Origin: Candidatus Nanopelagicales bacterium | Lineage (GTDB): Bacteria; Actinomycetota; Actinomycetes; S36-B12 | Assembly: GCA_040265115.1 (NCBI GenBank) | Contig: JBDQGZ010000002.1 | Coordinates: 1-38,163 of the forward strand | Direction of reading: 5' to 3' | Length of the DNA stretch: 38,163 nucleotides | Shown: positions 6,206 to 38,163 of the stretch, in pieces | Layout of the letters: the number at the start of each line of letters is the position of its first letter | Position numbering within the stretch: position 1 is the first letter of the stretch | Notes under the pieces: generated by a model | What the model saw: the letters and a program-made list of their open reading frames with translations, nothing else | Told to the model about the DNA's origin: nothing | Database searches by the model: none | Position numbers and translations under genes: made by a program

Positions 6206-6288
6206 GCGGGTGTGGCGGAATTGGCAGACGCGCAGGATTTAGGTTCCTGTGTCCGATGGACGTGAGGGTTCAAGTCCCTCCACCCGCA
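6206..6288 (+). tRNA. tRNA-Leu (anticodon TAG), class II with a long variable arm
   Basis: Acceptor stem GCGGGTG/CACCCGC. The anticodon stem CAGGA/TCCTG has loop TTTAGGT, giving anticodon TAG. The variable arm is TGTCCGATGGACGT and the T arm is GAGGG-TTCAAGT-CCCTC. The discriminator is A, and no CCA is encoded. Confidence 0.9.
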
Positions 6289-6291
6289 CGC

Positions 6292-9300: not shown

Positions 9301-9759
9301 ATGGGGACGCGACCCGCCCGAACCGGCGCCTCTGCGGCATCGGTTCGCCCTCCCCGCCCGCTCGCTATCCGGCTCACTGTCACATTCCTCATCATCGCCG
9401 CGACCGCCAACCTCGCCGGTGCGATCGTTAGTGCACTCCTGCTGTGGCAGCCCGCAGAGAACCAGTTGCTGTTCGGCTCAGGTGTCAGCGACTGGTTCTG
9501 GGCGCTCTCGGCGGTGCTGTTCCTCGCCCTCGCGCTCGTCTACGCCTACGTCACGCGAGCCGTGCTCAAGCGCGACGCGGGCGCCGGACTCGCGGTGAGC
9601 ATCCTCGGCCTCCTCGGCGTCGGCTACAGCCTGCTGTCCATCACCCACGCCTACGGCTGGGGGGTGCTCATCATCTCCCTGGGGATGCTCGCCTCGAACC
9701 AGGCCGCCACTGCTCAGGGGTACTACACCGGTCACGCGCTATCGATGCGCGACGACTAG
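9301..9759 (+). CDS. Hypothetical integral membrane protein (about 4 TM helices)
   Basis: The ORF has four hydrophobic segments and no recognisable motif. It runs convergent with cysM. Confidence 0.5.
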   Translation: MGTRPARTGASAASVRPPRPLAIRLTVTFLIIAATANLAGAIVSALLLWQPAENQLLFGSGVSDWFWALSAVLFLALALVYAYVTRAVLKRDAGAGLAVSILGLLGVGYSLLSITHAYGWGVLIISLGMLASNQAATAQGYYTGHALSMRDD

Positions 9760-9786: not shown

Positions 9787-11024
<1,238 letters not shown>

Positions 11025-11103
11025 GAAGTCTCCGCGGGGTGAGAGGACGTACAGAAGATCCGTTTCGGCCCTGCCACTGTACGGGAGCGAGGGCACGGGT
11101 GAA

Positions 11104-11520
11104 TCAGAGGACCTCGACGGGTTCCTCGGTCACCAGACCATCCACGATGCGGAAGGACCTGACCTCGACCGGCCCCTCGTCGATTCCACACTCCCGCGTC
11201 GAGACCAGCAGATAGTGGGCCTCCGGCTCGGATGCGTAGGAGATGTCGGTGCGTGAGGGGTAGGCCTCGGTGGCGGTGTGGGAGTGGTAGATCACCACCG
11301 GCACCTCATTCCGATCGTCCATGTCCCGGTAGAGCGCGAGCAGATCCCGGGAGTCGAACTCATAGAAGGTCGGGGACCTCGCGGCGTTCACCATGGGGAT
11401 GAACCGGGTCGGGGTGTCCGAGCCTTCGGGGCCGGCGATCACCCCGCAGGCCTCGTCGGGGTGGTCGGCCCGGGCATGGGCGATCACCGCGTCAAGCAGG
11501 GTGGAGTCAAGCCTCAGCAT
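11104..11520 (-). CDS. mec: JAMM/MPN+ zinc metalloprotease Mec (CysO-cysteine peptidase)
   Basis: E..CG acid residue (PDEACGVI) and the JAMM motif HSHTATEAYPSRTD (HxHx7SxxD). 138 aa. Confidence 0.85.
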   Translation of the reverse strand: MLRLDSTLLDAVIAHARADHPDEACGVIAGPEGSDTPTRFIPMVNAARSPTFYEFDSRDLLALYRDMDDRNEVPVVIYHSHTATEAYPSRTDISYASEPEAHYLLVSTRECGIDEGPVEVRSFRIVDGLVTEEPVEVL

Positions 11521-11587
11521 CCCCTTAGCCTAGGGGGCAGTTCCCGATCTTTACGCACCGGTAGGGGTCCATAAATCGATTCGTACC

Positions 11588-11616
11588 TTGTTCAACTTGC
11601 GCGAAGTTTCTAATAG
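11588..11616 (+). promoter_or_regulatory. Candidate sigma-70-type promoter for the rhodopsin gene
   Basis: In the AT-richest stretch of the 181-bp divergent intergenic region there is TTGTTC (11588-11593), then 15 nt, then TCTAAT (11609-11614), or 17 nt to TAATAG (11611-11616). This rests on pattern match only. Confidence 0.25.
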
Positions 11617-11701
11617 GTGAACGCTTCGGGGCATGACCCCATCGCGCGGGGTCTGAACATCGGACTCGGGTCCGCCGGACCCACCGTCATGGAGGTACCG
11701 C

Positions 11702-12535
11702 GTGCCAAACGTAGAAATGCTCACCAATGGACAGTTCCAGGCTGTCTATAACGTGCTTTCGCTTGCTCTCGCGTCGATGGTGGCCACCACCGTCTTCCTG
11801 CTCGTCGTGAGCCAGCGAGTGCTCCCCCGCTACCGCATTGCAGTCATCGTGTCGGCGACGGTGACGCTCATCGCCGCCTACCACTACTGGCGCATCTTCA
11901 ACTCCTTCTCCGACGCCTACGTGGCAGTCGAAGCAGGTGCGCCTGGCGTCGCCGACTCCTTCGCCCTGATCCAGGGTGTCGGCTTCAATGAGGGCTACCG
12001 CTACGTCGACTGGTTGCTCACCGTCCCGCTGCTGCTGTTCGAGACGATTGCCGTTCTCGCGCTGCCGGCTTCAACCCGTTCGTCCCTGCTGTGGAAGCTC
12101 ATCCCGGCTTCGGCCCTGATGATCATCCTCGGCTACCCCGGTGAGGTCACCGCTGAGATCGCTCCCAAGGCCATCTGGGGCGCGCTCTCGACGATTCCGT
12201 TCCTCTACATCCTCTACGTGCTCTTCGTGGAGCTGTCGAAGGCGGCCAAGAGCCAGCCCAACCAGGTCGGCAAGGACCTCGCCGGTCTTCGCTGGCTGCT
12301 GCTGGCCACCTGGGGCGTCTACCCGATCTCTTACATGTTCCCGATGTTCGGGCTCGACGGAGCGGATGCGTTCGTCTATCGCCAGATCGGCTACTCCATC
12401 GCCGACGTTCTCGCCAAGTGTCTCTTCGGCCTGCTGATCTTCAAGATCGCTCGCGTGAAGAGCATGAACGACAGCGCCGAGTTCGCCGAGACGGAGATGA
12501 AGGCTGCACCTTCCTCCGAGAAGGCCTCTGCCTGA
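11702..12535 (+). CDS. Type-1 microbial rhodopsin, xanthorhodopsin/actinorhodopsin/proteorhodopsin-like light-driven proton pump (DTE motif)
   Basis: Seven hydrophobic helices. Helix C is RYVDWLLTVPLLLFE (D103, T107, E114). Helix G is YSIADVLAKCLFG (D235, Schiff-base K239). Helix F is WGVYPISY, and helix B carries H61. The GTG start has GGAGG 6 nt upstream. Confidence 0.9.
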   Translation: MPNVEMLTNGQFQAVYNVLSLALASMVATTVFLLVVSQRVLPRYRIAVIVSATVTLIAAYHYWRIFNSFSDAYVAVEAGAPGVADSFALIQGVGFNEGYRYVDWLLTVPLLLFETIAVLALPASTRSSLLWKLIPASALMIILGYPGEVTAEIAPKAIWGALSTIPFLYILYVLFVELSKAAKSQPNQVGKDLAGLRWLLLATWGVYPISYMFPMFGLDGADAFVYRQIGYSIADVLAKCLFGLLIFKIARVKSMNDSAEFAETEMKAAPSSEKASA

Positions 12536-12556
12536 TCTAGTAGTCACTCCCGCGAG

Positions 12557-12588
12557 GGGGCGTTGGTGCCGAAAGGCATCAGCGCCCC
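12557..12588. terminator. Bidirectional intrinsic terminator hairpin between the rhodopsin gene and the convergent DUF2017 gene
   Basis: GGGGCGTTGGTGCC-GAAA-GGCATCAGCGCCCC forms a 14-bp stem (2 G-U pairs) with a GAAA tetraloop. It is followed by TTCGCTGTTTCT on the + strand. Confidence 0.7.
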
Positions 12589-12598
12589 TTCGCTGTTT

Positions 12599-13159
12599 CT
12601 AGCCCCTGGGCATGAGGCAGCGGACCAGGGACTCCGCTAGATAGGTCAACCAGTCGTAGACATGGAACAGGCCGCCGCGAGGATCATCCTCCGGAAGGTT
12701 CGCCAACGTCTCGTGGTTGTCCTCGGTCACCTCGAGGCGCGTGCCGATCGCGAGTCGCAGGTCATTGAGGGCGGTGAGCCACGCGCGCGCCTGGTCCTCT
12801 GACAGCGTGACCTTCTCCCCCGATGACGCGAGCGTGGATATCGCCGTGTTCGCGGCAGCGACCTTCGCCTCGCGCAGGCCTCGCTCGGTGTATCGGCGGA
12901 ACTCCGCCGACGCCTCCAGATCATCGGCATAGGCATCAGGGAACATCCGGACGAGCGCCGGATCATCCGGGCGTTCGGTATGGACGTCGATTCCGACCAG
13001 CGCCGCAAGCGGATCCGCATCCGGATCGGCCTCTGCCGGAGCCACCAGATCGATCATCTGCTCGAGCAGGGTGTTGAGCAGTCCCTTCTCCACGACGTCG
13101 ACCCGCAGCACGATGCGACCGGTGAGCGTCCGGGTGAAGCCGTGCACCTCGGTGCTCAT
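12599..13159 (-). CDS. DUF2017-domain protein (conserved ClpS neighbour)
   Basis: An acidic 186-aa protein whose ATG shares its A with the clpS TGA stop (TGATG at 13157-13161). This gene pair is conserved in Actinobacteria. Confidence 0.7.
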   Translation of the reverse strand: MSTEVHGFTRTLTGRIVLRVDVVEKGLLNTLLEQMIDLVAPAEADPDADPLAALVGIDVHTERPDDPALVRMFPDAYADDLEASAEFRRYTERGLREAKVAAANTAISTLASSGEKVTLSEDQARAWLTALNDLRLAIGTRLEVTEDNHETLANLPEDDPRGGLFHVYDWLTYLAESLVRCLMPRG

Positions 13160-13446
13160 CACTCGTCCTTCGCCATCGTCGCCCACAGCCCATAGGAGTG
13201 CATCGCGCCGACATCGCGCTCCATCTCCTCGCGTGTCCCGTTCGACACGACGGCGCGGCCTTCCTCGTGCACCTGCATCATCAACTGCTCGGACTTCTCA
13301 CGGGGATACTTGAAGTAGGTCATGAAGACATAGGTGACATAGCTCATGAGGTTCACCGGGTCATTCCAGACGATGGTGATCCAGGGCCGATCAAGTTCGA
13401 CGACCTCATCGGTGTCGGGGCGCTCGAGTTCGGTCGGCGCAGTCAT
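13159..13446 (-). CDS. clpS: ATP-dependent Clp protease adaptor ClpS
   Basis: PWITIVWNDPVNLMSYVTYVFMTYF...EKSEQLMMQVHEEGRAVV is the typical ClpS core. 95 aa. Confidence 0.9.
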   Translation of the reverse strand: MTAPTELERPDTDEVVELDRPWITIVWNDPVNLMSYVTYVFMTYFKYPREKSEQLMMQVHEEGRAVVSNGTREEMERDVGAMHSYGLWATMAKDE

Positions 13447-13474: not shown

Positions 13475-15373
13475 TCACGAGCCCGAGGTGACCTCGAGAG
13501 TGATCTTCGGGGAGACGCCCCGGATATAGCCGTCGTTATTGCCCGCGACGAATCGATAGACGACCGTCTTCGGCTTCAGCACACGGACGTTGCCCTCGAT
13601 ACGGCCATTCCCGTCAGTGGTGATCTTGCGAATTGTGCTCCACCCGTCATCGGTGAACTTCTGCAACCGGACGGTCACGCCAGCCTGTGCCGGGCTCAAG
13701 GCCGCGGCGAGGGTCACAGTCTCGCGCTTCACCGCGGTGTACTCGCGCGAATCGACCTTCACCTTCCAGCGAACCCGGGTGCGCATCGCATCGCTGGCTG
13801 CCGCAGTCTGCTGGTCAGTCGCGGCGACCTCGACCCAGAAGTAGCCGGTGCGCTCGGGGGAAACGCGGAACTTGCCGGTGCCGTCATCGTCGAGCACGAG
13901 GATGTCGACGACCTCGGCCTTCGCCTCGGCGGCGGTGGTGGCCCCCTCGGCTGTCGGCGACCACAGCAGCGTCGCTGTCGCGCCCGCTGACGGACCCTTC
14001 TCCGAGGTGGTGGCGATCTTGATCGCGGCCTTGCGGCCGTATGTCACCGTGGAAGAGGCCGACGTGGTGAGTGTGGTCTCCGCTGGCGCGAGCTCACGCC
14101 CGTACTCGAGGAGTCGAGGGTAGAAGTCCGGCTGGACACTGCCGAAGTTCCACACCGCGATGCCGGCGATCCCGAGGTCGGGAACCATCTGGGCGTCGGT
14201 GAGCGCGCTTCGAGTGTCGCCGAACCACACCTCACGCTCCACGGTGCACTCGCGCTCCACCTGATCACCCTGCTTGGTGAAACGTCCGTTGATCTGCGTG
14301 GTGTAGGTGAAGGACCACTCGCCCTGCGTGGAGTTCCACTTCGGCTGCTGGTCATTGGCCTTCGCGACGGCTTCGGCTGCCGCCGGAGATGCCATCGACT
14401 GCATCGTGGTGGAAATCCACATCCCACGGGTGTTGTAGTAACCGGGCGTCCAGCCACTGGGGCACTTGTCGTCGATCCCGTACACCGGGTTGCTGTAGGT
14501 GCCCTGGTTCACGACCCACTGCCGGCCGTACTGGGGGTTGCCGACCCAGAGCTTCGCCGCATTCTCCTGGCCCACCGCGGCGATCGCGGCTTGCAGCTGA
14601 CTGCGGGCCCAACCGGTGGGCCCGATGGGACCGGGCACGTTCCAGCTGTAGTCATAGGTCATGAATCTCACCTGATCGGCGAACCCGATCACCTCGGCGA
14701 GGGCATAGACGCCGCCCTCGCCGCCCCAATACGCCTGACCACCGGGAATCGTGAGGGACAGTTCGAGGCCCTGGTCGTGCAGTTCCCGCGACAGCCGCTT
14801 CATCATGGCGATCCAGCGCGGGCGAGTCTCCGCCCAACTGATGCCGAGATCGCGATCGCGGAAGGCGAAGTTCTCCCAATCCAGATCGACGCCGTCAACC
14901 CCGGCGTTCTTCGCGTAGCGGGCGATGGTGCGCGCGTAGTCGCGGCGGTTCGCAGGGTCCTCGAGATAGGGGGACAACTGGCCGGCATAGGTCGAACCGA
15001 GATCCGTGATCGACCCGAAGACCTTGATCCCGGCGTCTTGGAGCATGCGCCGCTGACCGTCGAACTTCGAGTTCGTCCAGGGGGTCGATCCACTCGGGTC
15101 GCAGACGCCGTTGGTCGCGCTGATCACGCAGATGGGATTGTCCGGCCCCGCGAAGGTCCACCAGAAGATGTTGACCTCACCGACGACGCCATCGGATTCC
15201 TCGATGAGGGTCTGCACCTGGGAGTCCTTCGCCCACCATCCGAACCAACCGCTGACGATCGGCTCAGGCTCGACCGCTGCTGAGGCTGCGGATGGGGCGG
15301 CCACTGCTGCGAGACCCGCGACAAGCGCGGAGGCAGCGAAGGTCGCCATCGAGGCGGTGAGTGAGCGTCGCAC
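13475..15373 (-). CDS. Secreted glycoside hydrolase family 18 protein with C-terminal Ig-like beta-sandwich modules
   Basis: GH18 catalytic motif GVDGVDLDWENF (DxxDxDxE). Signal peptide VRRSLTASMATFAASALVAGLAAVAAPSAASA, with GGGAGGG 9 nt upstream of GTG 15373 (the ORF extends to 15478). The C-terminal ~200 aa are beta-rich repeats. Confidence 0.8.
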   Translation of the reverse strand: MRRSLTASMATFAASALVAGLAAVAAPSAASAAVEPEPIVSGWFGWWAKDSQVQTLIEESDGVVGEVNIFWWTFAGPDNPICVISATNGVCDPSGSTPWTNSKFDGQRRMLQDAGIKVFGSITDLGSTYAGQLSPYLEDPANRRDYARTIARYAKNAGVDGVDLDWENFAFRDRDLGISWAETRPRWIAMMKRLSRELHDQGLELSLTIPGGQAYWGGEGGVYALAEVIGFADQVRFMTYDYSWNVPGPIGPTGWARSQLQAAIAAVGQENAAKLWVGNPQYGRQWVVNQGTYSNPVYGIDDKCPSGWTPGYYNTRGMWISTTMQSMASPAAAEAVAKANDQQPKWNSTQGEWSFTYTTQINGRFTKQGDQVERECTVEREVWFGDTRSALTDAQMVPDLGIAGIAVWNFGSVQPDFYPRLLEYGRELAPAETTLTTSASSTVTYGRKAAIKIATTSEKGPSAGATATLLWSPTAEGATTAAEAKAEVVDILVLDDDGTGKFRVSPERTGYFWVEVAATDQQTAAASDAMRTRVRWKVKVDSREYTAVKRETVTLAAALSPAQAGVTVRLQKFTDDGWSTIRKITTDGNGRIEGNVRVLKPKTVVYRFVAGNNDGYIRGVSPKITLEVTSGS

Positions 15374-15532
15374 GCGGGTGAACCCTCCCAGGTCGTTCAC
15401 GAATGAAGAGCAGCGTCCTGCTCTCCACGGTACGACGCGTCGGGGGCGGTTCTGGTTCACCGCGCGGTGATCTGCCACACATTCTCAGGGAGATCTGAAA
15501 ACCCGCCCGAGTGGACGTCCACCAATCCGGGT

Positions 15533-17277: not shown

Positions 17278-18030
17278 TTGACGGTGTGGGAGACACTGCG
17301 GGAGCGGGTCCGCCGCGAGCCCGCCCAGCCCCTCATCACGTTCGTCAGCACGCATGAGTTCGACAGCCAGCGGATGGAGTTATCGGCGGCGAGTTTTGCC
17401 AACGCCGTGGCCAAGACCGCCGGCCTCCTGCGCGATGACCTCGACGTCCAGCCCGGGGACAGGATCGCCGCACACCTGCCCCTGCACTGGCAGACCGCCG
17501 TCTGGTTCGCCGCAACCGCCGCCCTCGACGCCATCTGGTGTCCCGGTGCCGTCGCCGGAGCGGTCGGCGTGGCCACCTCCGATCGCCTGGACCTGATCGA
17601 GGGATGCCCAGAACGCGTTGCAGTGTCCCTGGCCGCCTTCGGGCTGCCGGAGGGAAACTCGTTGCCGCCCGGGGTGATCGAGGCCGCCATCGAGATGCGT
17701 GTGCACCCCGACGAGTTCACCCCGTACTCCCCGCCCGCACCGCAGGCACCCCTGTTGAGCCTGCCGAGTGGGGACTGGACCGAGGAGCAGTTACTGGCCC
17801 GCGCGGGCGTATGCGCCGCGAACTGGGGACTCCAGGCCGGTGGTCGACTGCTGCTCACCGATGCCGACTGGGATGAGGGCTCATCGGACTGCTGGGCTGC
17901 CCTGCTCGCCGCCCCGCTGATCCGGGATGCCGCCGCGGTACTCGTCGCTGGCTCCGATCCTGATCAGATCGCGGCAACCACGCGGGCCGAGGGTGTCACC
18001 GCGACCGCGTCGGTTCGAGACATCACCTAG
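17278..18030 (+). CDS. TIGR03089-family conserved actinobacterial protein (degenerate adenylate-forming-enzyme-like)
   Basis: VWETLRERVRREPAQPLITFV...GDRIAAHLPLHWQTAVWFAA, in its conserved position next to DUF3039 and near an LCP gene. The start is uncertain (TTG 17278, GTG 17269 or GTG 17284). The longer ORF from 17146 overlaps the DUF3039 gene. Confidence 0.65.
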   Translation: MTVWETLRERVRREPAQPLITFVSTHEFDSQRMELSAASFANAVAKTAGLLRDDLDVQPGDRIAAHLPLHWQTAVWFAATAALDAIWCPGAVAGAVGVATSDRLDLIEGCPERVAVSLAAFGLPEGNSLPPGVIEAAIEMRVHPDEFTPYSPPAPQAPLLSLPSGDWTEEQLLARAGVCAANWGLQAGGRLLLTDADWDEGSSDCWAALLAAPLIRDAAAVLVAGSDPDQIAATTRAEGVTATASVRDIT

Positions 18031-21000
18031 CGGATCGTGGCCCTGCGGGTCGGGCTCACGGCAACGATCTCATCCCCATCGAGGGCGACCACCCGCCAGG
18101 AATAGGTCTGCCCCGCAGGAGCGATATTGGTGAGCTTAAAGCCGTAGCGGCCCTTGCCATCCGGAACGGTGGTCTCACGCTCCTGCCAGCCCACGCCACT
18201 CCAGGTGACCTGCCGCTGCAGGACGACATCGGCGTCTGCGGGAAACACGCGTCCGCGCAGCACCGCGGTGGAGCCGGCGCTGATCGAACCCAGGGGACGC
18301 CGGATGAGGGACACCGACACCTCCGAGCTCGGCTGTGTCGTCGTGGGCGTGTCAGCGTTGGGTGAATCGGCCGGTGGCTCTTCGGTCTTCTCCGCCTTGA
18401 TGGTGCCCTTGCGTTCTGGACTCATCGCGACGAGCGCGTTGCCCTGATAGACCAGCACACGCCAGTAGTAGGTCATCCCGGCCGGGCCGATATTCGGCAG
18501 ATCGAAACTGTATTTTCCATTCGAATCGGGGGCGATCCGCTCCCGGTTTTGCCAGCCGAGGCTCCCCCAGCGCACCTGGCGCTGCACCTCGAGGGTGGTC
18601 GGCGACGCATCACCGGACGTGACTTTGACCCGCCCCCTGAGTACCGCGGTGGAGCCCTCGGGGATCTGGCCCAGGGGCCGCCGGATCAGGTTGACCTTTG
18701 CCTCGATAGTGGGCTGCGGAGTTGGAGTCACCCCACCACCACCGCCGCCCGAACCGCTCTCCTGATCGCCGAGGACGTACTCGATGTAAGTCGACCGCAA
18801 GCCGAGAGCGGAGCGCAAGGTGCGACCGGAGACCGATGCGGTTCGACCATCGTAAGTCGTGGCGACCAGTGAATCAGCTGCCCCGGAGGTCTGCGAGGGG
18901 ATCACCTCGATCGTCATGATGTCGCTGACGCCGAAGATCTGAGCCATGCGCGACTGCGAAGCCGTGACGGTCCACGTCCGGTAGGGATTGCCCTCGACCG
19001 ACAGGCTCCAGCGGTCATCGACGCTCCTCGACCAGGGGTAGCCGGCTCCGCCCCACACCTCGCTACTGGACTGGGTGCGTCCGCCGGTCGCCGCGGTGTA
19101 GAACGCGGGGATGGGCGAGCCGCCGTAGGTCAGCATCTGGCCTCTGGTCGAGGTTACGGCCGAAACCCATTGCGCCCCATAGGTTCCCGACTCGACGTGA
19201 TAGGCGTGGAAGGTCTGGTCGTAGAACGGGCCGCCGCCGTCGTCCATGTGGCACAGGCACGATGAGCGCACCCCGCTGCGGTACTTCCACATCGCGTAGG
19301 AGCGTGACGCAATGGCCTGTGACTGGACCGCTGGGCTCGGCCAATTCGCCGGCACCTCGGCAATCCCCTTGAGATAGGACTCCATGTCAAGCACATTCAC
19401 GACCGCCAGACGCTGCCCACCATTGGTGGACACACCACTCACCTCGACGGTGCCATAGCGATAGCGATGCTTCGGAGAGGCGAAGGATTCGCCCGGGCCG
19501 ATGACGTTGAGCAGAGTCGGCTGCGTTCCTGCACCGCCGGGGTCCGCCGTGCCTGACCAGCGCAGGGTCACCGTCCGGCCGCGACCGAGGACCGTCTGCT
19601 CACCGCCGAGGCTCTGCGTCACCCGAACGTATTCATCGCTGGGTTCGAGCCGGTAGTTCGCGCCACTGACTCCGGGGAAGGCGGTGTTCCCGATGCTGAT
19701 CTCCAAGCCGCCACCCGCTCCGTTGATGCGCTCGGTGCGCACCTGAGCGAAGCTCGACTCGTAGAGCAGCCCGATGCGCAGATCGGAAGCCTCCGCAGCG
19801 GTCTCCAGCCTCGTGCCCGGGAAATAGTGAGACAGGATCTGGGCGGTCGAGCGGCCCTCACGAGCCTGTCCGAGCGCGCCCCACTGGGACAATCCCACCC
19901 CGTGGCCATAGCCGGTGCCCGTGACGGTGAATTCACTCGGCGGGGAGCAGGGATCCGGGGGCGAACCCGGCGAGGTCGAGATCCGCACGAAGCCGGTCCA
20001 GTCATAGGCCTTCTCGCCACCGACGTTTCCGCTGACGACGACGGTGTAGCGCCCTGGCGGAACGCGCTTGCCCTTGGCATCCGTGCCATTCCACGACAAT
20101 GGCAGCGGCCCTGCCGCGGAGTTGCTGCCCTTGACGACGCGGACTTCGTCGCCGCAAGCCGAACTGAGCGTCATCGTGAGGTTCGCGGCCGCGGTCGTGG
20201 TCGGCGTCACCACGATCGGAGTGCCTGAGCCCCATCCCGATCCAGAGCCGGAGATCGTCGGGGCGTAGAACGTGCTCCCCTCCCGTTCGGCGACCAGCTG
20301 ACGCAACTGCGGAACGTAGGGCCGCAGGAAGGTGCCCGGGCAGGAGGTGTTGCCGATGTCTCCGTGACCGGTGATGGTCGGGGTCGGCACCTTCTCGCCC
20401 GGCCAGTACATCGACGTGCCCGCCCCGATCGGTCCCGGACCAGCGGAGGTGAGAACCGTGGTCGCAGTGGGGTCCACATGGTGGACGGCGAATTTCCAGG
20501 CGATGAGATCGGCGATGGCACCGACGATTCGATTCGCCTCCGCCTTCTTCGGATCAAGGGTGTCGGCGTTGCCGAGGAAGGACACGGCAAAACTCTCGGA
20601 ATTGAATCCCTGTGTGTGGGCCCCGTTGACCGCCTTGTCGATTCCCCCGGCGCGTCCCTCGTAGAGGTTGCCGAAGCGATCGACGACGAAGTTGTAGCCG
20701 AAGTCATTCACGCCCACACCCTGGGTGAACCAGGAATAGACGTTGCGCATCTGCTGGGCGGCCTGGGCCTCGGTGTAGTCGTTGCTGGACACCACATGGT
20801 GGACGAAGGCGACCTTCAACTCATCGGAGTAGGAGGTGGAGCCGCGGCGCAGAGATTCATTGGCTCCCCACTCCGCGCGCGAGATGATGCGCGGTTGCGC
20901 CGCAGCAGCATTCGCCGCATCCACGGGGAGTGATCGGGTGCCGATGAGCGCGTCCTCATCGGTGATCGGGTTGTCAATCATGGTGACGCGAGTGTCGGTG

Positions 21001-21551
21001 GGAACCGAGCCATCGGGGGTGTCGATGCGGACCTGGATTCCGTCGGCACCTGTCGTCACCAGCGGCTCGGTGGCGAACCGTGCGCGCTCGGCTTCATCGG
21101 TTCCCGGGTCAGGGCGATGCTCGCTGACCGGCAGTTCAGCCCAGTCGGTCCAGCCCTGTGGCTCCCGGATGCGCACCACGATGCGTGTGCCCTCGTCGAA
21201 GGGTTCCTGCGCGGTGATCCCCATGAGTCCGAAGTCGCTCGTGTCGGTCTGCGCGGTCACGACGGCCGGCTGCAGCCCCTCGACCTCTTCGGAATGCGAG
21301 TGGAGGGTCGTTCCATCCGGATCCCCAACGACCGGGACCTCCGCCTCGGCGTTCGGTGATTCCGCGAGGCCCTCGGGATCGACCTCGGCTAGGGCCATGC
21401 TCGACACGGTGGGCGTGATCGGGTCTCGGTCGCCCAGAGACAGGCCGGCGGTGAGGGACGAGAAGTCCACGACGGGCAGGGCGAGCGTGGCGGGGATCAC
21501 CAGGGTTGCGGTCGCCAGGGCGAGGATGCGTCGCTGTCCCCGGGATGCCAT
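18027..21551 (-). CDS. Large secreted multidomain peptidoglycan hydrolase: N-acetylmuramoyl-L-alanine amidase (amidase_2/PGRP) + FlgD-Ig-like + SpoIID/LytB domain + two tandem C-terminal beta-sandwich repeats
   Basis: Signal peptide MASRGQRRILALATATLVIPATLALP (ATG 21551). Amidase_2 spans about 20340-20895 (RIISRAEWGANES...VAFVHHVVS...GYNFVVDRFGNLYEGRAG...GHGDIGNTSCPG). SpoIID-like spans about 18930-19915 (GYGHGVGLSQWGA, MESYLKGIAEVPANWP, AFYTAATGGRTQ). The repeats are at about 18396-18699 and 18030-18322. Confidence 0.85.
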   Translation of the reverse strand: MASRGQRRILALATATLVIPATLALPVVDFSSLTAGLSLGDRDPITPTVSSMALAEVDPEGLAESPNAEAEVPVVGDPDGTTLHSHSEEVEGLQPAVVTAQTDTSDFGLMGITAQEPFDEGTRIVVRIREPQGWTDWAELPVSEHRPDPGTDEAERARFATEPLVTTGADGIQVRIDTPDGSVPTDTRVTMIDNPITDEDALIGTRSLPVDAANAAAAQPRIISRAEWGANESLRRGSTSYSDELKVAFVHHVVSSNDYTEAQAAQQMRNVYSWFTQGVGVNDFGYNFVVDRFGNLYEGRAGGIDKAVNGAHTQGFNSESFAVSFLGNADTLDPKKAEANRIVGAIADLIAWKFAVHHVDPTATTVLTSAGPGPIGAGTSMYWPGEKVPTPTITGHGDIGNTSCPGTFLRPYVPQLRQLVAEREGSTFYAPTISGSGSGWGSGTPIVVTPTTTAAANLTMTLSSACGDEVRVVKGSNSAAGPLPLSWNGTDAKGKRVPPGRYTVVVSGNVGGEKAYDWTGFVRISTSPGSPPDPCSPPSEFTVTGTGYGHGVGLSQWGALGQAREGRSTAQILSHYFPGTRLETAAEASDLRIGLLYESSFAQVRTERINGAGGGLEISIGNTAFPGVSGANYRLEPSDEYVRVTQSLGGEQTVLGRGRTVTLRWSGTADPGGAGTQPTLLNVIGPGESFASPKHRYRYGTVEVSGVSTNGGQRLAVVNVLDMESYLKGIAEVPANWPSPAVQSQAIASRSYAMWKYRSGVRSSCLCHMDDGGGPFYDQTFHAYHVESGTYGAQWVSAVTSTRGQMLTYGGSPIPAFYTAATGGRTQSSSEVWGGAGYPWSRSVDDRWSLSVEGNPYRTWTVTASQSRMAQIFGVSDIMTIEVIPSQTSGAADSLVATTYDGRTASVSGRTLRSALGLRSTYIEYVLGDQESGSGGGGGGVTPTPQPTIEAKVNLIRRPLGQIPEGSTAVLRGRVKVTSGDASPTTLEVQRQVRWGSLGWQNRERIAPDSNGKYSFDLPNIGPAGMTYYWRVLVYQGNALVAMSPERKGTIKAEKTEEPPADSPNADTPTTTQPSSEVSVSLIRRPLGSISAGSTAVLRGRVFPADADVVLQRQVTWSGVGWQERETTVPDGKGRYGFKLTNIAPAGQTYSWRVVALDGDEIVAVSPTRRATIR

Positions 21552-21835
21552 CGTCCCAGCGCTCGCAGCGCGACGACGATCAGCCGGGGGGTCCTCCCCG
21601 GCTGAATTCCCGGACCTCACCTCGCCAGGGTCTCCCGCGGGCCCCCGGGCATGTCAAGCCGACGCACCCGTCACACGGGTCACTCTCATCACATTCCCAG
21701 GAAGTCCCCGCGCATGAGGGATATCCCCAGCCGGAGCCGACCGGGCCTCGGGAACCGTACCCGGGGGCCGTCGCGTCCTAGGCTTGGTCTCGTCGCCCCT
21801 CCCTGACCGGGGCTCACCTTCGCAAGGAGTCGCAC

Positions 21836-36908: not shown

Positions 36909-38163
36909 ATGACGCCCCTTCGTCGCTTTGGATTTTCCGGTCTGCTCGCTGTCCTAGCAGCCTTGTTCCTCCTGGGGTCGACCGGCGCCGCCCACGCCGC
37001 CACCCTCGATGAGATCGGTGCGGACCTACGTGCCGACAACGTCTACAACGACTACGCGGCTGAGAACGCACTCACCATCTCCCAGACCGTCGACCTGCAA
37101 TTGCAGATCTCGGAGACGGGTCTGCCGATCTACATTGCGGTTCTGCCCGAATCGATGGCGGTCGAGGCCGGGGGGCCCGACGCGCTGCTCGTCGAGATCC
37201 GCGATGCAGTCGGTCGCGGTGGGGTGTACGCGACCATCGCCGGAAGTGCCTTCCGGGCCGGCGGCACTGACTACTCCGTGACCGGGATCGCGGATGCGGC
37301 CTTCGCCAGCCAAGCATCAAATGGCCCCTACGCGGTCCTCGAGGCGTTCGTGGCGGGCGTTGATGCTCAATACGGATCATCCTCAAGCGGAGGGGGTACG
37401 TCTTCGGGCAGTCCTGGATGGGTGTTCCTTGTCATCCTCGTGGTGTTCCTCGGCTTCGCCATCATCGTGACCTTCTTCTCCATCCGCTACTCCCGCAAGC
37501 GCAAGGCCATCTGGGCCGCGCAGATGCGGGAGGTTCTCGATGAGGACATCACCGAACTCGGCGAACGACTCGGCGGTTTCGATCTTTCGGATCCGCGATT
37601 GGACCAGGTCGGACGCGATCAGCTTCAGGTCGCGCTGGATGCCTACGCCCGAGCCGGAGACCGAAGCGCGGTGCTGAAGTCAGACGCCGATGTCATGCAG
37701 ACGACGAAGGCACTCGATGACGGGCGTTACGCGCTGGCCTGCGTCGAGGCGAGCATGAACGATGAGGATCCGCCTGCGCGCAGAGCACCCTGTTTCTTCG
37801 ATCCGCGCCACGGTGTCAGCCTCGACGACGTGATGTTCACGCCCATGAGCGGACAACCACATCCGGTCCCGGCGTGTGCGACCTGCTCTGCGACTGTTGC
37901 CGCCGGTGGATATCCGCAGCCACGCGAGGTCGAGGTCGCGGGGATCCGACGGCCCTACTGGGACGCTGGCGGAGCCTATGCGCCCTACGCGCGGGGGTAT
38001 TTCTCCGGTTTCGGAACCACGATGGTCGCTGCCTTCGCCGGCACGATGATTGCCCAATCACTGTTCGCTCCGACGATGGCCGCGGCCTCCACCACGGGCA
38101 TCGGTGACTCCGGCGGCGGAGGTTTCGGTGGCGGTGACTTCGGCGGCGGCGGCTTCAGCGGTG
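36909..38163 (+). CDS. Conserved actinobacterial membrane protein. It has a signal peptide, an extracytoplasmic TPM-like domain, a TM helix, and a cytoplasmic Cys-motif domain with a Gly-rich tail. The 3' end runs off the window.
   Basis: The frame is open from ATG 36909 to the window end (verified codon by codon), so it is absent from the ORF track. Signal peptide MTPLRRFGFSGLLAVLAALFLLGSTGAAHA. TM helix GWVFLVILVVFLGFAIIVTFFSI. Motifs PCFFDPRHG and PACATC, with tail GGGGFGGGDFGGGGFSG. Confidence 0.7.
   Translation, partial: MTPLRRFGFSGLLAVLAALFLLGSTGAAHAATLDEIGADLRADNVYNDYAAENALTISQTVDLQLQISETGLPIYIAVLPESMAVEAGGPDALLVEIRDAVGRGGVYATIAGSAFRAGGTDYSVTGIADAAFASQASNGPYAVLEAFVAGVDAQYGSSSSGGGTSSGSPGWVFLVILVVFLGFAIIVTFFSIRYSRKRKAIWAAQMREVLDEDITELGERLGGFDLSDPRLDQVGRDQLQVALDAYARAGDRSAVLKSDADVMQTTKALDDGRYALACVEASMNDEDPPARRAPCFFDPRHGVSLDDVMFTPMSGQPHPVPACATCSATVAAGGYPQPREVEVAGIRRPYWDAGGAYAPYARGYFSGFGTTMVAAFAGTMIAQSLFAPTMAAASTTGIGDSGGGGFGGGDFGGGGFSG

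Follow-up and report, generated by a model that had tools for sequence, protein, structure and literature searches.

A probable actinorhodopsin proton pump encoded at a conserved locus of a high-G+C Candidatus Nanopelagicales bacterium

Actinorhodopsins (ActRs) form the actinobacterial branch of the xanthorhodopsin-like rhodopsins, a family named in 2008. The ActR of the acI lineage absorbs at 541 nm and supports a light-driven acidification that is sensitive to carbonyl cyanide m-chlorophenylhydrazone (Dwulit-Smith et al. 2018). RlActR, from Rhodoluna lacicola, is a green-absorbing pentamer that pumps protons in cells and in proteoliposomes. For ActR-13023 of Ca. Aquiluna, absorption lies at 565 nm and binding to a native carotenoid has been shown. 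Here we analyze a stretch of 38,163 nt of DNA from a Candidatus Nanopelagicales bacterium (contig JBDQGZ010000002.1 of assembly GCA_040265115.1, hereafter the window) and, within it, an open reading frame (ORF) of 277 codons with a GTG start (11702-12535, + strand), identified by an ORF finder and translation. A sequence-only reading of the window had presented this ORF as a microbial rhodopsin with a complete proton-pump signature. We consider it very likely that the ORF encodes an ActR that works as a light-driven proton pump, and we refer to the gene as actR.

As judged from its sequence, the protein is a microbial (type-1) rhodopsin and a member of PF01036 (Bac_rhodopsin): the hidden Markov model search against Pfam that the sequence-only reading had proposed returned a significant match over residues 19-250 (E 1e-38; 133.5 bits against a cutoff of 24.6). 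The best sequence match in the PDB is 9hfk (E 2e-85), which the Foldseek description gives as the cryo-electron microscopy structure of RlActR and whose D92, E103, H62, and K234 are the RlActR residues of PMC11790970. Gloeobacter rhodopsin (GR; 6nwd, 2e-75) and psXR (9wfa, 5e-74) come next, followed by xanthorhodopsin (XR; 3ddl) and Kin4B8 (7ytb), both at about 2e-61, and by thermophilic rhodopsin (5azd, 1e-59); chloride and sodium pumps (about 1e-33 to 1e-26), proteorhodopsins (about 1e-22), and bacteriorhodopsin (BR; about 1e-16) match more weakly. An AlphaFold2 model computed from 41 homologs (mean predicted local distance difference test [pLDDT] score 81, predicted template-modelling score 0.79) contains seven helices, at residues 9-39, 42-72, 98-120, 123-149, 153-182, 187-211, and 220-257. 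The model superimposes on GR with template-modelling (TM) scores of 0.85/0.95 and a root mean square deviation of 1.6 Å, the deviation from XR-type structures being 1.6-2.2 Å overall, and the top Foldseek matches are GR, psXR, RlActR, Kin4B8, and XR (TM 0.79-0.95).

The residues of the retinal pocket and of the proton path are all present, in the right helices, and invariant. They were mapped in an alignment that took as references BR and green proteorhodopsin (GPR, eBAC31A08), both checked against the PDB (BR identical, GPR off by one signal-peptide residue), together with the aligned fragments of RlActR, GR, psXR, XR, and Kin4B8. Helix C carries the signature RYVDWLLTVPLLLFE (11999-12043, +), in which R100 (11999-12001) aligns with BR R82, the acceptor and counterion D103 (12008-12010) with BR D85, GPR D97, and GR D121, T107 (12020-12022) with BR T89 and GPR T101, the green-tuning L111 (12032-12034) with GPR L105, and the proton donor E114 (12041-12043) with BR D96, GPR E108, and GR E132. 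In helix B, H61 (11882-11884, +) aligns with GPR H75, XR H62, GR H87, and RlActR H62, the histidine that hydrogen-bonds the counterion Asp in proteorhodopsin and in xanthorhodopsin-type pumps. The helix G motif D235-V-L-A-K239 (12404-12418, +) provides the second counterion Asp (12404-12406; BR D212, GPR D227) and the Schiff-base Lys (12416-12418; BR K216, GPR K231), followed by C240. The pocket is completed by W104, W204, Y207, and P208, equivalent to W86, W182, Y185, and P186 of BR, with the helix F segment WGVYPISY starting at residue 204. When each residue and codon was recomputed, all lay where the sequence-only reading had put them, and its assignments of the helix C D-T-E (DTE) triad, the helix G lysine, the His75 equivalent, the tuning leucine, the helix F segment, and the seven-helix topology were borne out by the alignment and the model. 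That reading had staked its case on D103, E114, and K239 lying in helices C and G; in both the alignment and the model D103 and E114 are within helix C (98-120) and D235 and K239 within helix G (220-257). Helix A starts as early as residue 9, which leaves no space for a cleavable signal peptide and makes the earlier claim of its absence reasonable; GPR has 17 extra N-terminal residues.

Identity to the reference proteins is 59% for RlActR, 53% for GR, 51% for psXR, 50% for Kin4B8, 46% for XR, 30% for GPR, and 28% for BR. In a neighbor-joining tree (259 columns, BLOSUM62 distances, 100 bootstraps, with support counted from bipartitions), the query groups with its database relatives in a single clade (100/100), which joins RlActR in 97/100 bootstraps, and GR, psXR, XR, and Kin4B8 make up the sister group (98/100). 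The xanthorhodopsin-like superclade as a whole is recovered in 100/100 bootstraps, with GPR and BR outside it, so that the phylogeny called for by the earlier reading groups the query with RlActR and away from proteorhodopsin. A proline in the middle of helix D has been proposed to separate actino-opsins from other xantho-opsins (Dwulit-Smith et al. 2018). The corresponding column holds Pro in the query (P135; 12104-12106, +), in RlActR, and in all 120 nearest homologs, and V, V, F, and L in GR, psXR, XR, and Kin4B8, respectively. Based on the tree and on P135, we assign the protein to the ActRs and not to the proteorhodopsins in the narrow sense. The proteorhodopsin-type reading given earlier is therefore correct for the chemistry, as the DTE motif and the equivalents of His75 and Leu105 are common to the query and GPR and outward pumping would be expected of both, but not for the descent, as shown by the 30% identity and the position outside the clade. 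Proteorhodopsin proper is ruled out by these two features and by the lack of an N-terminal extension; unlike the query, GPR carries an N-terminal signal peptide that is cleaved, and it has Pro150 in the column of the fenestration glycine discussed below.

The query shares with RlActR (9hfk), acI ActR, and ActR-13023 the DTE motif, the helix-B His, the Schiff-base Lys, the green-tuning Leu, the helix-D Pro, a helix-E Gly, a Cys beside the Lys, and the organization as a stand-alone gene away from the retinal pathway; it is 72-73% identical to ActRs of metagenome-assembled genomes (MAGs) labelled acI or acSTL (L084 and L060 of our comparison). With XR (3ddl), GR (6nwd), Kin4B8 (7ytb), and psXR (9wfa) it has in common the superclade, the proton-pathway residues, the fenestration glycine, and 46-53% identity; unlike them, it stands on the ActR side of the split, has Pro135 in place of V, F, or L, and conserves the antenna pocket only in part. 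The glycine in question, G160 (12179-12181, +), lies at the start of helix E and aligns with XR G156, GR G178, Kin4B8 G153, and RlActR G151, and with W138 of BR.

Three features set the protein or its host apart from described ActRs. First, the loop between helices B and C (11915-11998, residues ~72-99) exceeds that of the solved xanthorhodopsin-type and ActR structures by 8-15 residues, the distance from the helix-B His to the helix-C Arg being 39-42 residues in the query clade versus 27 in RlActR and 31 in XR and GR; it is modelled as a beta-hairpin with moderate confidence (pLDDT 62-75). Second, C240, which RlActR shares, is the sole cysteine, so that the disulfide between helix 1 and helix 7 proposed for acI-A/B cannot form; since acI-C also lacks the Cys pair (Dwulit-Smith et al. 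2018), this has no bearing on ActR membership. Third, the G+C content of the host is about 66%, versus 40-51% in cultivated Nanopelagicales. The long loop, the single Cys, and the host G+C content leave the classification as an ActR unchanged.

The gene is conserved and widely represented. A search of 5.8 billion proteins gave 6,848 significant matches among the candidates scored, with MAGs labelled Candidatus Nanopelagicales as a frequent source, the top 120 of which are 71-99% identical to the query and include several bacteriorhodopsin-like proteins or xanthorhodopsins from Candidatus Nanopelagicales or Actinomycetota MAGs. All 14 functional positions checked, among them H61, P135, G160, D235, and K239, are invariant across these 120 homologs, and pairwise ratios of nonsynonymous to synonymous substitution rates (dN/dS) of 0.05-0.22 against seven orthologs indicate purifying selection. 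The identical protein occurs on six public contigs and belongs to a nine-member cluster at 90% identity, one member of which IMG names 'bacteriorhodopsin'. The family is well studied and common in freshwater actinobacteria, and the gene itself is already known and comes as no surprise; because ActRs have been described since 2008 and characterized both biochemically and structurally, and because the identical protein is already public, its novelty is low.

By analogy with its characterized relatives, all-trans-retinal would be bound to the helix G residue K239 as a protonated Schiff base and would be isomerized by light, in the green range as predicted from L111. The Schiff-base proton would then pass to the counterion D103, which would be tuned by H61 and assisted by R100 and D235 in the counterion complex, before a proton is released outside, and E114 would reprotonate the Schiff base from the cytoplasmic side. 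Overall, protons would be pumped outward and would supplement the proton-motive force of a photoheterotrophic cell. Given that RlActR pumps protons as a pentamer, the same is likely to hold here. In the least certain step of this scheme, G160 might keep a fenestration open in helix E, which could admit a second chromophore in the form of a carotenoid antenna; going by the sequence, such binding is possible.

The gene appears to be transcribed on its own. The sequence-only reading had described it as monocistronic, in agreement with the fact that both neighbors lie on the minus strand and that the stop codon is followed by an intrinsic-terminator-like hairpin. This hairpin (12552-12593, +; 19 bp, a GAAA loop, and a T-rich tail), found by a terminator scan, is situated between the convergent rhodopsin and DUF2017 genes and has a predicted folding energy of -41.6 kcal/mol (z = -6.65). 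The G+C content at the three codon positions of the ORF (0.59, 0.42, and 0.84) follows the pattern of real genes, as in the neighbors. At the 5' end, a Shine-Dalgarno sequence GGAGG was read directly at 11691-11695, followed by TACCGC and the GTG codon; the 6-nt spacing reported earlier is thus confirmed. The closest orthologs keep the GTG start and a purine run resembling a Shine-Dalgarno sequence, and in most homologs the first conserved glycine is preceded by 8-9 residues; the two findings support the annotated start.

Further upstream, a conserved block TGTTCAACTTGCGC (11589-11602, +) ends in TTGCGC (11597-11602), a likely -35 hexamer, and a likely -10 hexamer AACGCT (11620-11625, +) follows 17 nt later. 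The block TGTTCAACTTGCG is invariant in an alignment of 14 orthologous intergenic regions. We compared loci by scanning one genome per GTDB species, which yielded 572 relatives; the best 80 were taken with their flanks and probed with the proteins encoded next to the rhodopsin in the window. The motif TCAASTTGCG occurs a single time in the window; of the 44 loci with this motif, 42 have it once, on the + strand, 60-125 nt ahead of the rhodopsin start. Across 37 unique orthologous sequences compiled into a position matrix, A2 and T6 of the downstream hexamer are each 97% conserved, at a fixed spacing of 17 nt after TTGCG. The combination of TGTTCAACTTGCG with nAnnnT 17 nt further on (11589-11625 in the window) was observed upstream of the rhodopsin in about 40 species-level genomes (L008-L084), and a second conserved patch, aaatcGcg.CA, 9-19 nt further upstream of TGTTCAACTTGCG. 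Since the -35/-10 geometry fits and the element is conserved across species, it is likely, from these sequence comparisons, to be a shared sigma-A-type promoter located ~80-105 nt upstream of the start codon.

Between this element and the start codon lies a GC-rich structured 5' leader (11630-11701, +) that includes the hairpin GGGTCCgccGGACCC (11668-11682) and the GGAGG sequence. The predicted fold of 11630-11710 (-40.3 kcal/mol, z = -3.3) was not equalled in stability by any of 200 shuffled sequences, and the Shine-Dalgarno sequence is paired in it. Relatives have a hairpin of another sequence, GGCGCCggagGGCGCC, at the same position of the leader. RNAalifold applied to ten orthologous leaders found only three consensus pairs and no solid covariation, which we attribute to differences in loop length; the hairpins are alike in place only and do not amount to a conserved leader structure. 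A search of the whole window against Rfam matched one tRNA-Leu, with no rRNA and no family in the rhodopsin leader.

Several points weigh against the assignment of a light-driven, possibly antenna-bearing ActR expressed from its own promoter. A scan of the protein against NCBIfam returned no family at E ≤ 0.01, and the naming therefore drew on Pfam, the PDB, and phylogeny. Pigment formation, the absorption maximum, and pumping are extrapolated from relatives that are 59-73% identical. Of the six residues that we take to form the keto-ring pocket of xanthorhodopsin, a set used as a lead only, the query has no more than four (G160, T164, M212, and M215). The strict sigma-70 consensus scan of 11400-12750 called no promoter, and conservation is the basis on which one is proposed. 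The fenestration glycine is considered necessary but not sufficient for a carotenoid antenna, by Dwulit-Smith et al. (2018) among others. Lastly, crtE, crtB, crtI, crtY, and blh were not found in the 38-kb window, and some ActR-bearing actinobacteria lack blh and need retinal from outside.

The last point bears on the alternative that survives best, although we regard it as unlikely: the protein would be the same ActR in a cell unable to make retinal, which would either scavenge the chromophore from other plankton or use the apo-opsin in a light-independent membrane role. Besides the absence of blh and crt genes from the window, it is favored by precedent, since acI-C, Nanopelagicus, and Rhodoluna lacicola have actR without blh, and a recent preprint (PMC12393363) has proposed lipid scrambling for opsins in genomes without the last enzyme of retinal synthesis. 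The Pfam annotation of the 38 kb likewise contains no carotenoid, retinal, heliorhodopsin, or transducer gene, in line with the earlier statement that the rhodopsin is the only gene of the window with a light-related function. On the other hand, actR is usually distant from the retinal pathway genes, even where genomes have both (Dwulit-Smith et al. 2018), and their absence within 38 kb therefore says little. Moreover, the fact that the Schiff-base Lys, both counterions, the donor, and the tuning residue do not vary among 120 homologs, together with the low dN/dS, points to selection on a photochemical function. We thus favor a light-driven ActR.

A further proposal concerns subtypes and leaves the ActR assignment intact. 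The high-G+C Nanopelagicales-like clade may hold a distinct ActR subtype, marked by the long extracellular B-C hairpin, by the conserved promoter element, and, in the query, by a leader fold that would hide the ribosome-binding site. We hold this to be improbable, but if true, it could entail a change in the oligomer or antenna interface and a pump whose translation is regulated, e.g., by temperature or by a factor, both of which would be undescribed for actinorhodopsins.

It is a very remote prospect that the protein instead serves in light sensing, as a sensory rhodopsin, pumps sodium, chloride, or inward-moving protons, or is a heliorhodopsin: the fold is common to the NDQ and NTQ pumps (TM 0.8-0.87), but the motif is D-T-E and not N-D-Q, N-T-Q, or F-S-E, the nearest characterized relatives are all outward proton pumps, chloride and sodium pumps are no more than 27-33% identical to it, the adjacent genes include no transducer, and the helix G motif is DxxxK and not the SxxxK of heliorhodopsins.

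The ActR gene occupies a conserved genomic slot. Upstream and divergent from it is a gene for a Mec/JAB-type protein (11104-11520, -), the first of a mec-cysO-cysM cluster (9787-11520, -) with the Pfam domains Prok-JAB, ThiS, and PALP, as annotated on an identical contig; of 69 species-level loci with enough flanking sequence, 53 have a Mec/JAB gene as the immediate upstream neighbor, on the other strand. Downstream and convergent are the genes for a DUF2017 protein (12599-13186) and ClpS, which Pfam annotation places at 12599-13446 (-), and DUF2017 follows the rhodopsin directly in 52 of 62 loci with enough flank, so that about 80% of the related species-level genomes keep the arrangement. 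The loci compared span 52-70% G+C, with rhodopsin identities from 67% to 99%, and the divergence of the flanking proteins keeps pace with that of the rhodopsin. The conserved slot and the parallel divergence of the neighbors lead us to conclude that the rhodopsin is a stable, vertically inherited core gene and not part of an island. The host belongs to a freshwater actinobacterial lineage, the closest genomes being titled mostly Candidatus Nanopelagicales, Actinomycetota, or Actinomycetes, with flanking genes 79-96% identical to those of the window. Nine relatives (L007, L010, L031, L039, L052, L062, L065, L068, and L076) are titled Bifidobacteriaceae, Bifidobacterium breve, Acidobacteria, Rubrivirga, or Rubricoccaceae; these automatic third-party annotation labels look wrong, because the same actinobacterial synteny block is present wherever the flank sufficed (L076 has none downstream).

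Rhodopsins move between lineages, and a gene that forms its own transcription unit and is functionally unrelated to its neighbors could be read as a stand-alone photosystem acquired recently amid housekeeping genes. We reject such a transfer, to which we attach almost no probability, on the grounds of synteny and composition: most of the best 80 genomes have the rhodopsin in this position between mec-cysO-cysM and DUF2017-clpS, the G+C content at third codon positions (0.84) equals that of the adjacent genes (0.8-0.88), the neighbor proteins diverge in step with the rhodopsin, and no mobile-element genes flank it. The earlier remark that the gene is unrelated to its neighbors is accurate as far as function goes, but with a slot conserved across dozens of species it is no sign of transfer; the description of the window as high in G+C is correct (65.6%).

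The remainder of the window was annotated from the Pfam domains of identical contigs for 0.8-17 kb and from Pfam scans of all sizeable ORFs for 17-38 kb. Upstream of the vertically inherited ActR gene are genes for G6PD, GroES, ZnuABC, AhpC, a tRNA-Leu (6206-6289, +, between AhpC and Ham1; the sole Rfam match mentioned above), Ham1, and RNase PH, as well as a metallo-beta-lactamase-fold protein, glutamate racemase, and CysM-CysO-Mec. The cluster encoding the last three (9787-11520, -) corresponds to a pathway described in Mycobacterium, in which cysteine is made by way of a sulfur carrier protein. Downstream are genes for DUF2017, ClpS, a GH18 glycosidase, IclR, DUF308, DUF3039, an amidase/SpoIID wall protein, and LytR, then for a methyltransferase, a GT2 glycosyltransferase, UDP-glucose dehydrogenase, a thioesterase, PurE, PurK, and GtrA, and finally for adenylate cyclase, a bPH_2-domain protein, biotin ligase, acyl-CoA carboxylase subunits, and Maf. 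The chitinase-like GH18 glycosidase beside ClpS (13475-15478, -) is up to 667 aa long when read from the first in-frame start, or 632 aa as called on an identical public contig; because its identity across relatives is 25-45%, far below that of the flanking genes, it appears to be the fast-evolving or replaced gene of the block. A protein of 1197 aa (18027-21620, -) combines N-acetylmuramoyl-L-alanine amidase, FlgD-Ig-like, and SpoIID domains and is probably a cell wall remodelling enzyme. Two ORFs of coding type have no Pfam match, one at 36909-38162 (+, 417 aa or more, running past the end of the window) and one at 9301-9759 (+, 152 aa).

For the biology of the family, the gene adds little, since it is a further example of the device on which freshwater actinobacteria mainly rely to harvest light. 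Its modest value lies in the context, that of a pump kept under strong purifying selection and in a fixed slot in higher-G+C, probably less streamlined relatives of acI. If retinal synthesis proved to be absent from the lineage, the question of where actinobacteria without blh obtain their chromophore would extend to it. Finally, a single promoter element conserved across the group may help to explain the very high levels of actR transcripts reported from lakes.

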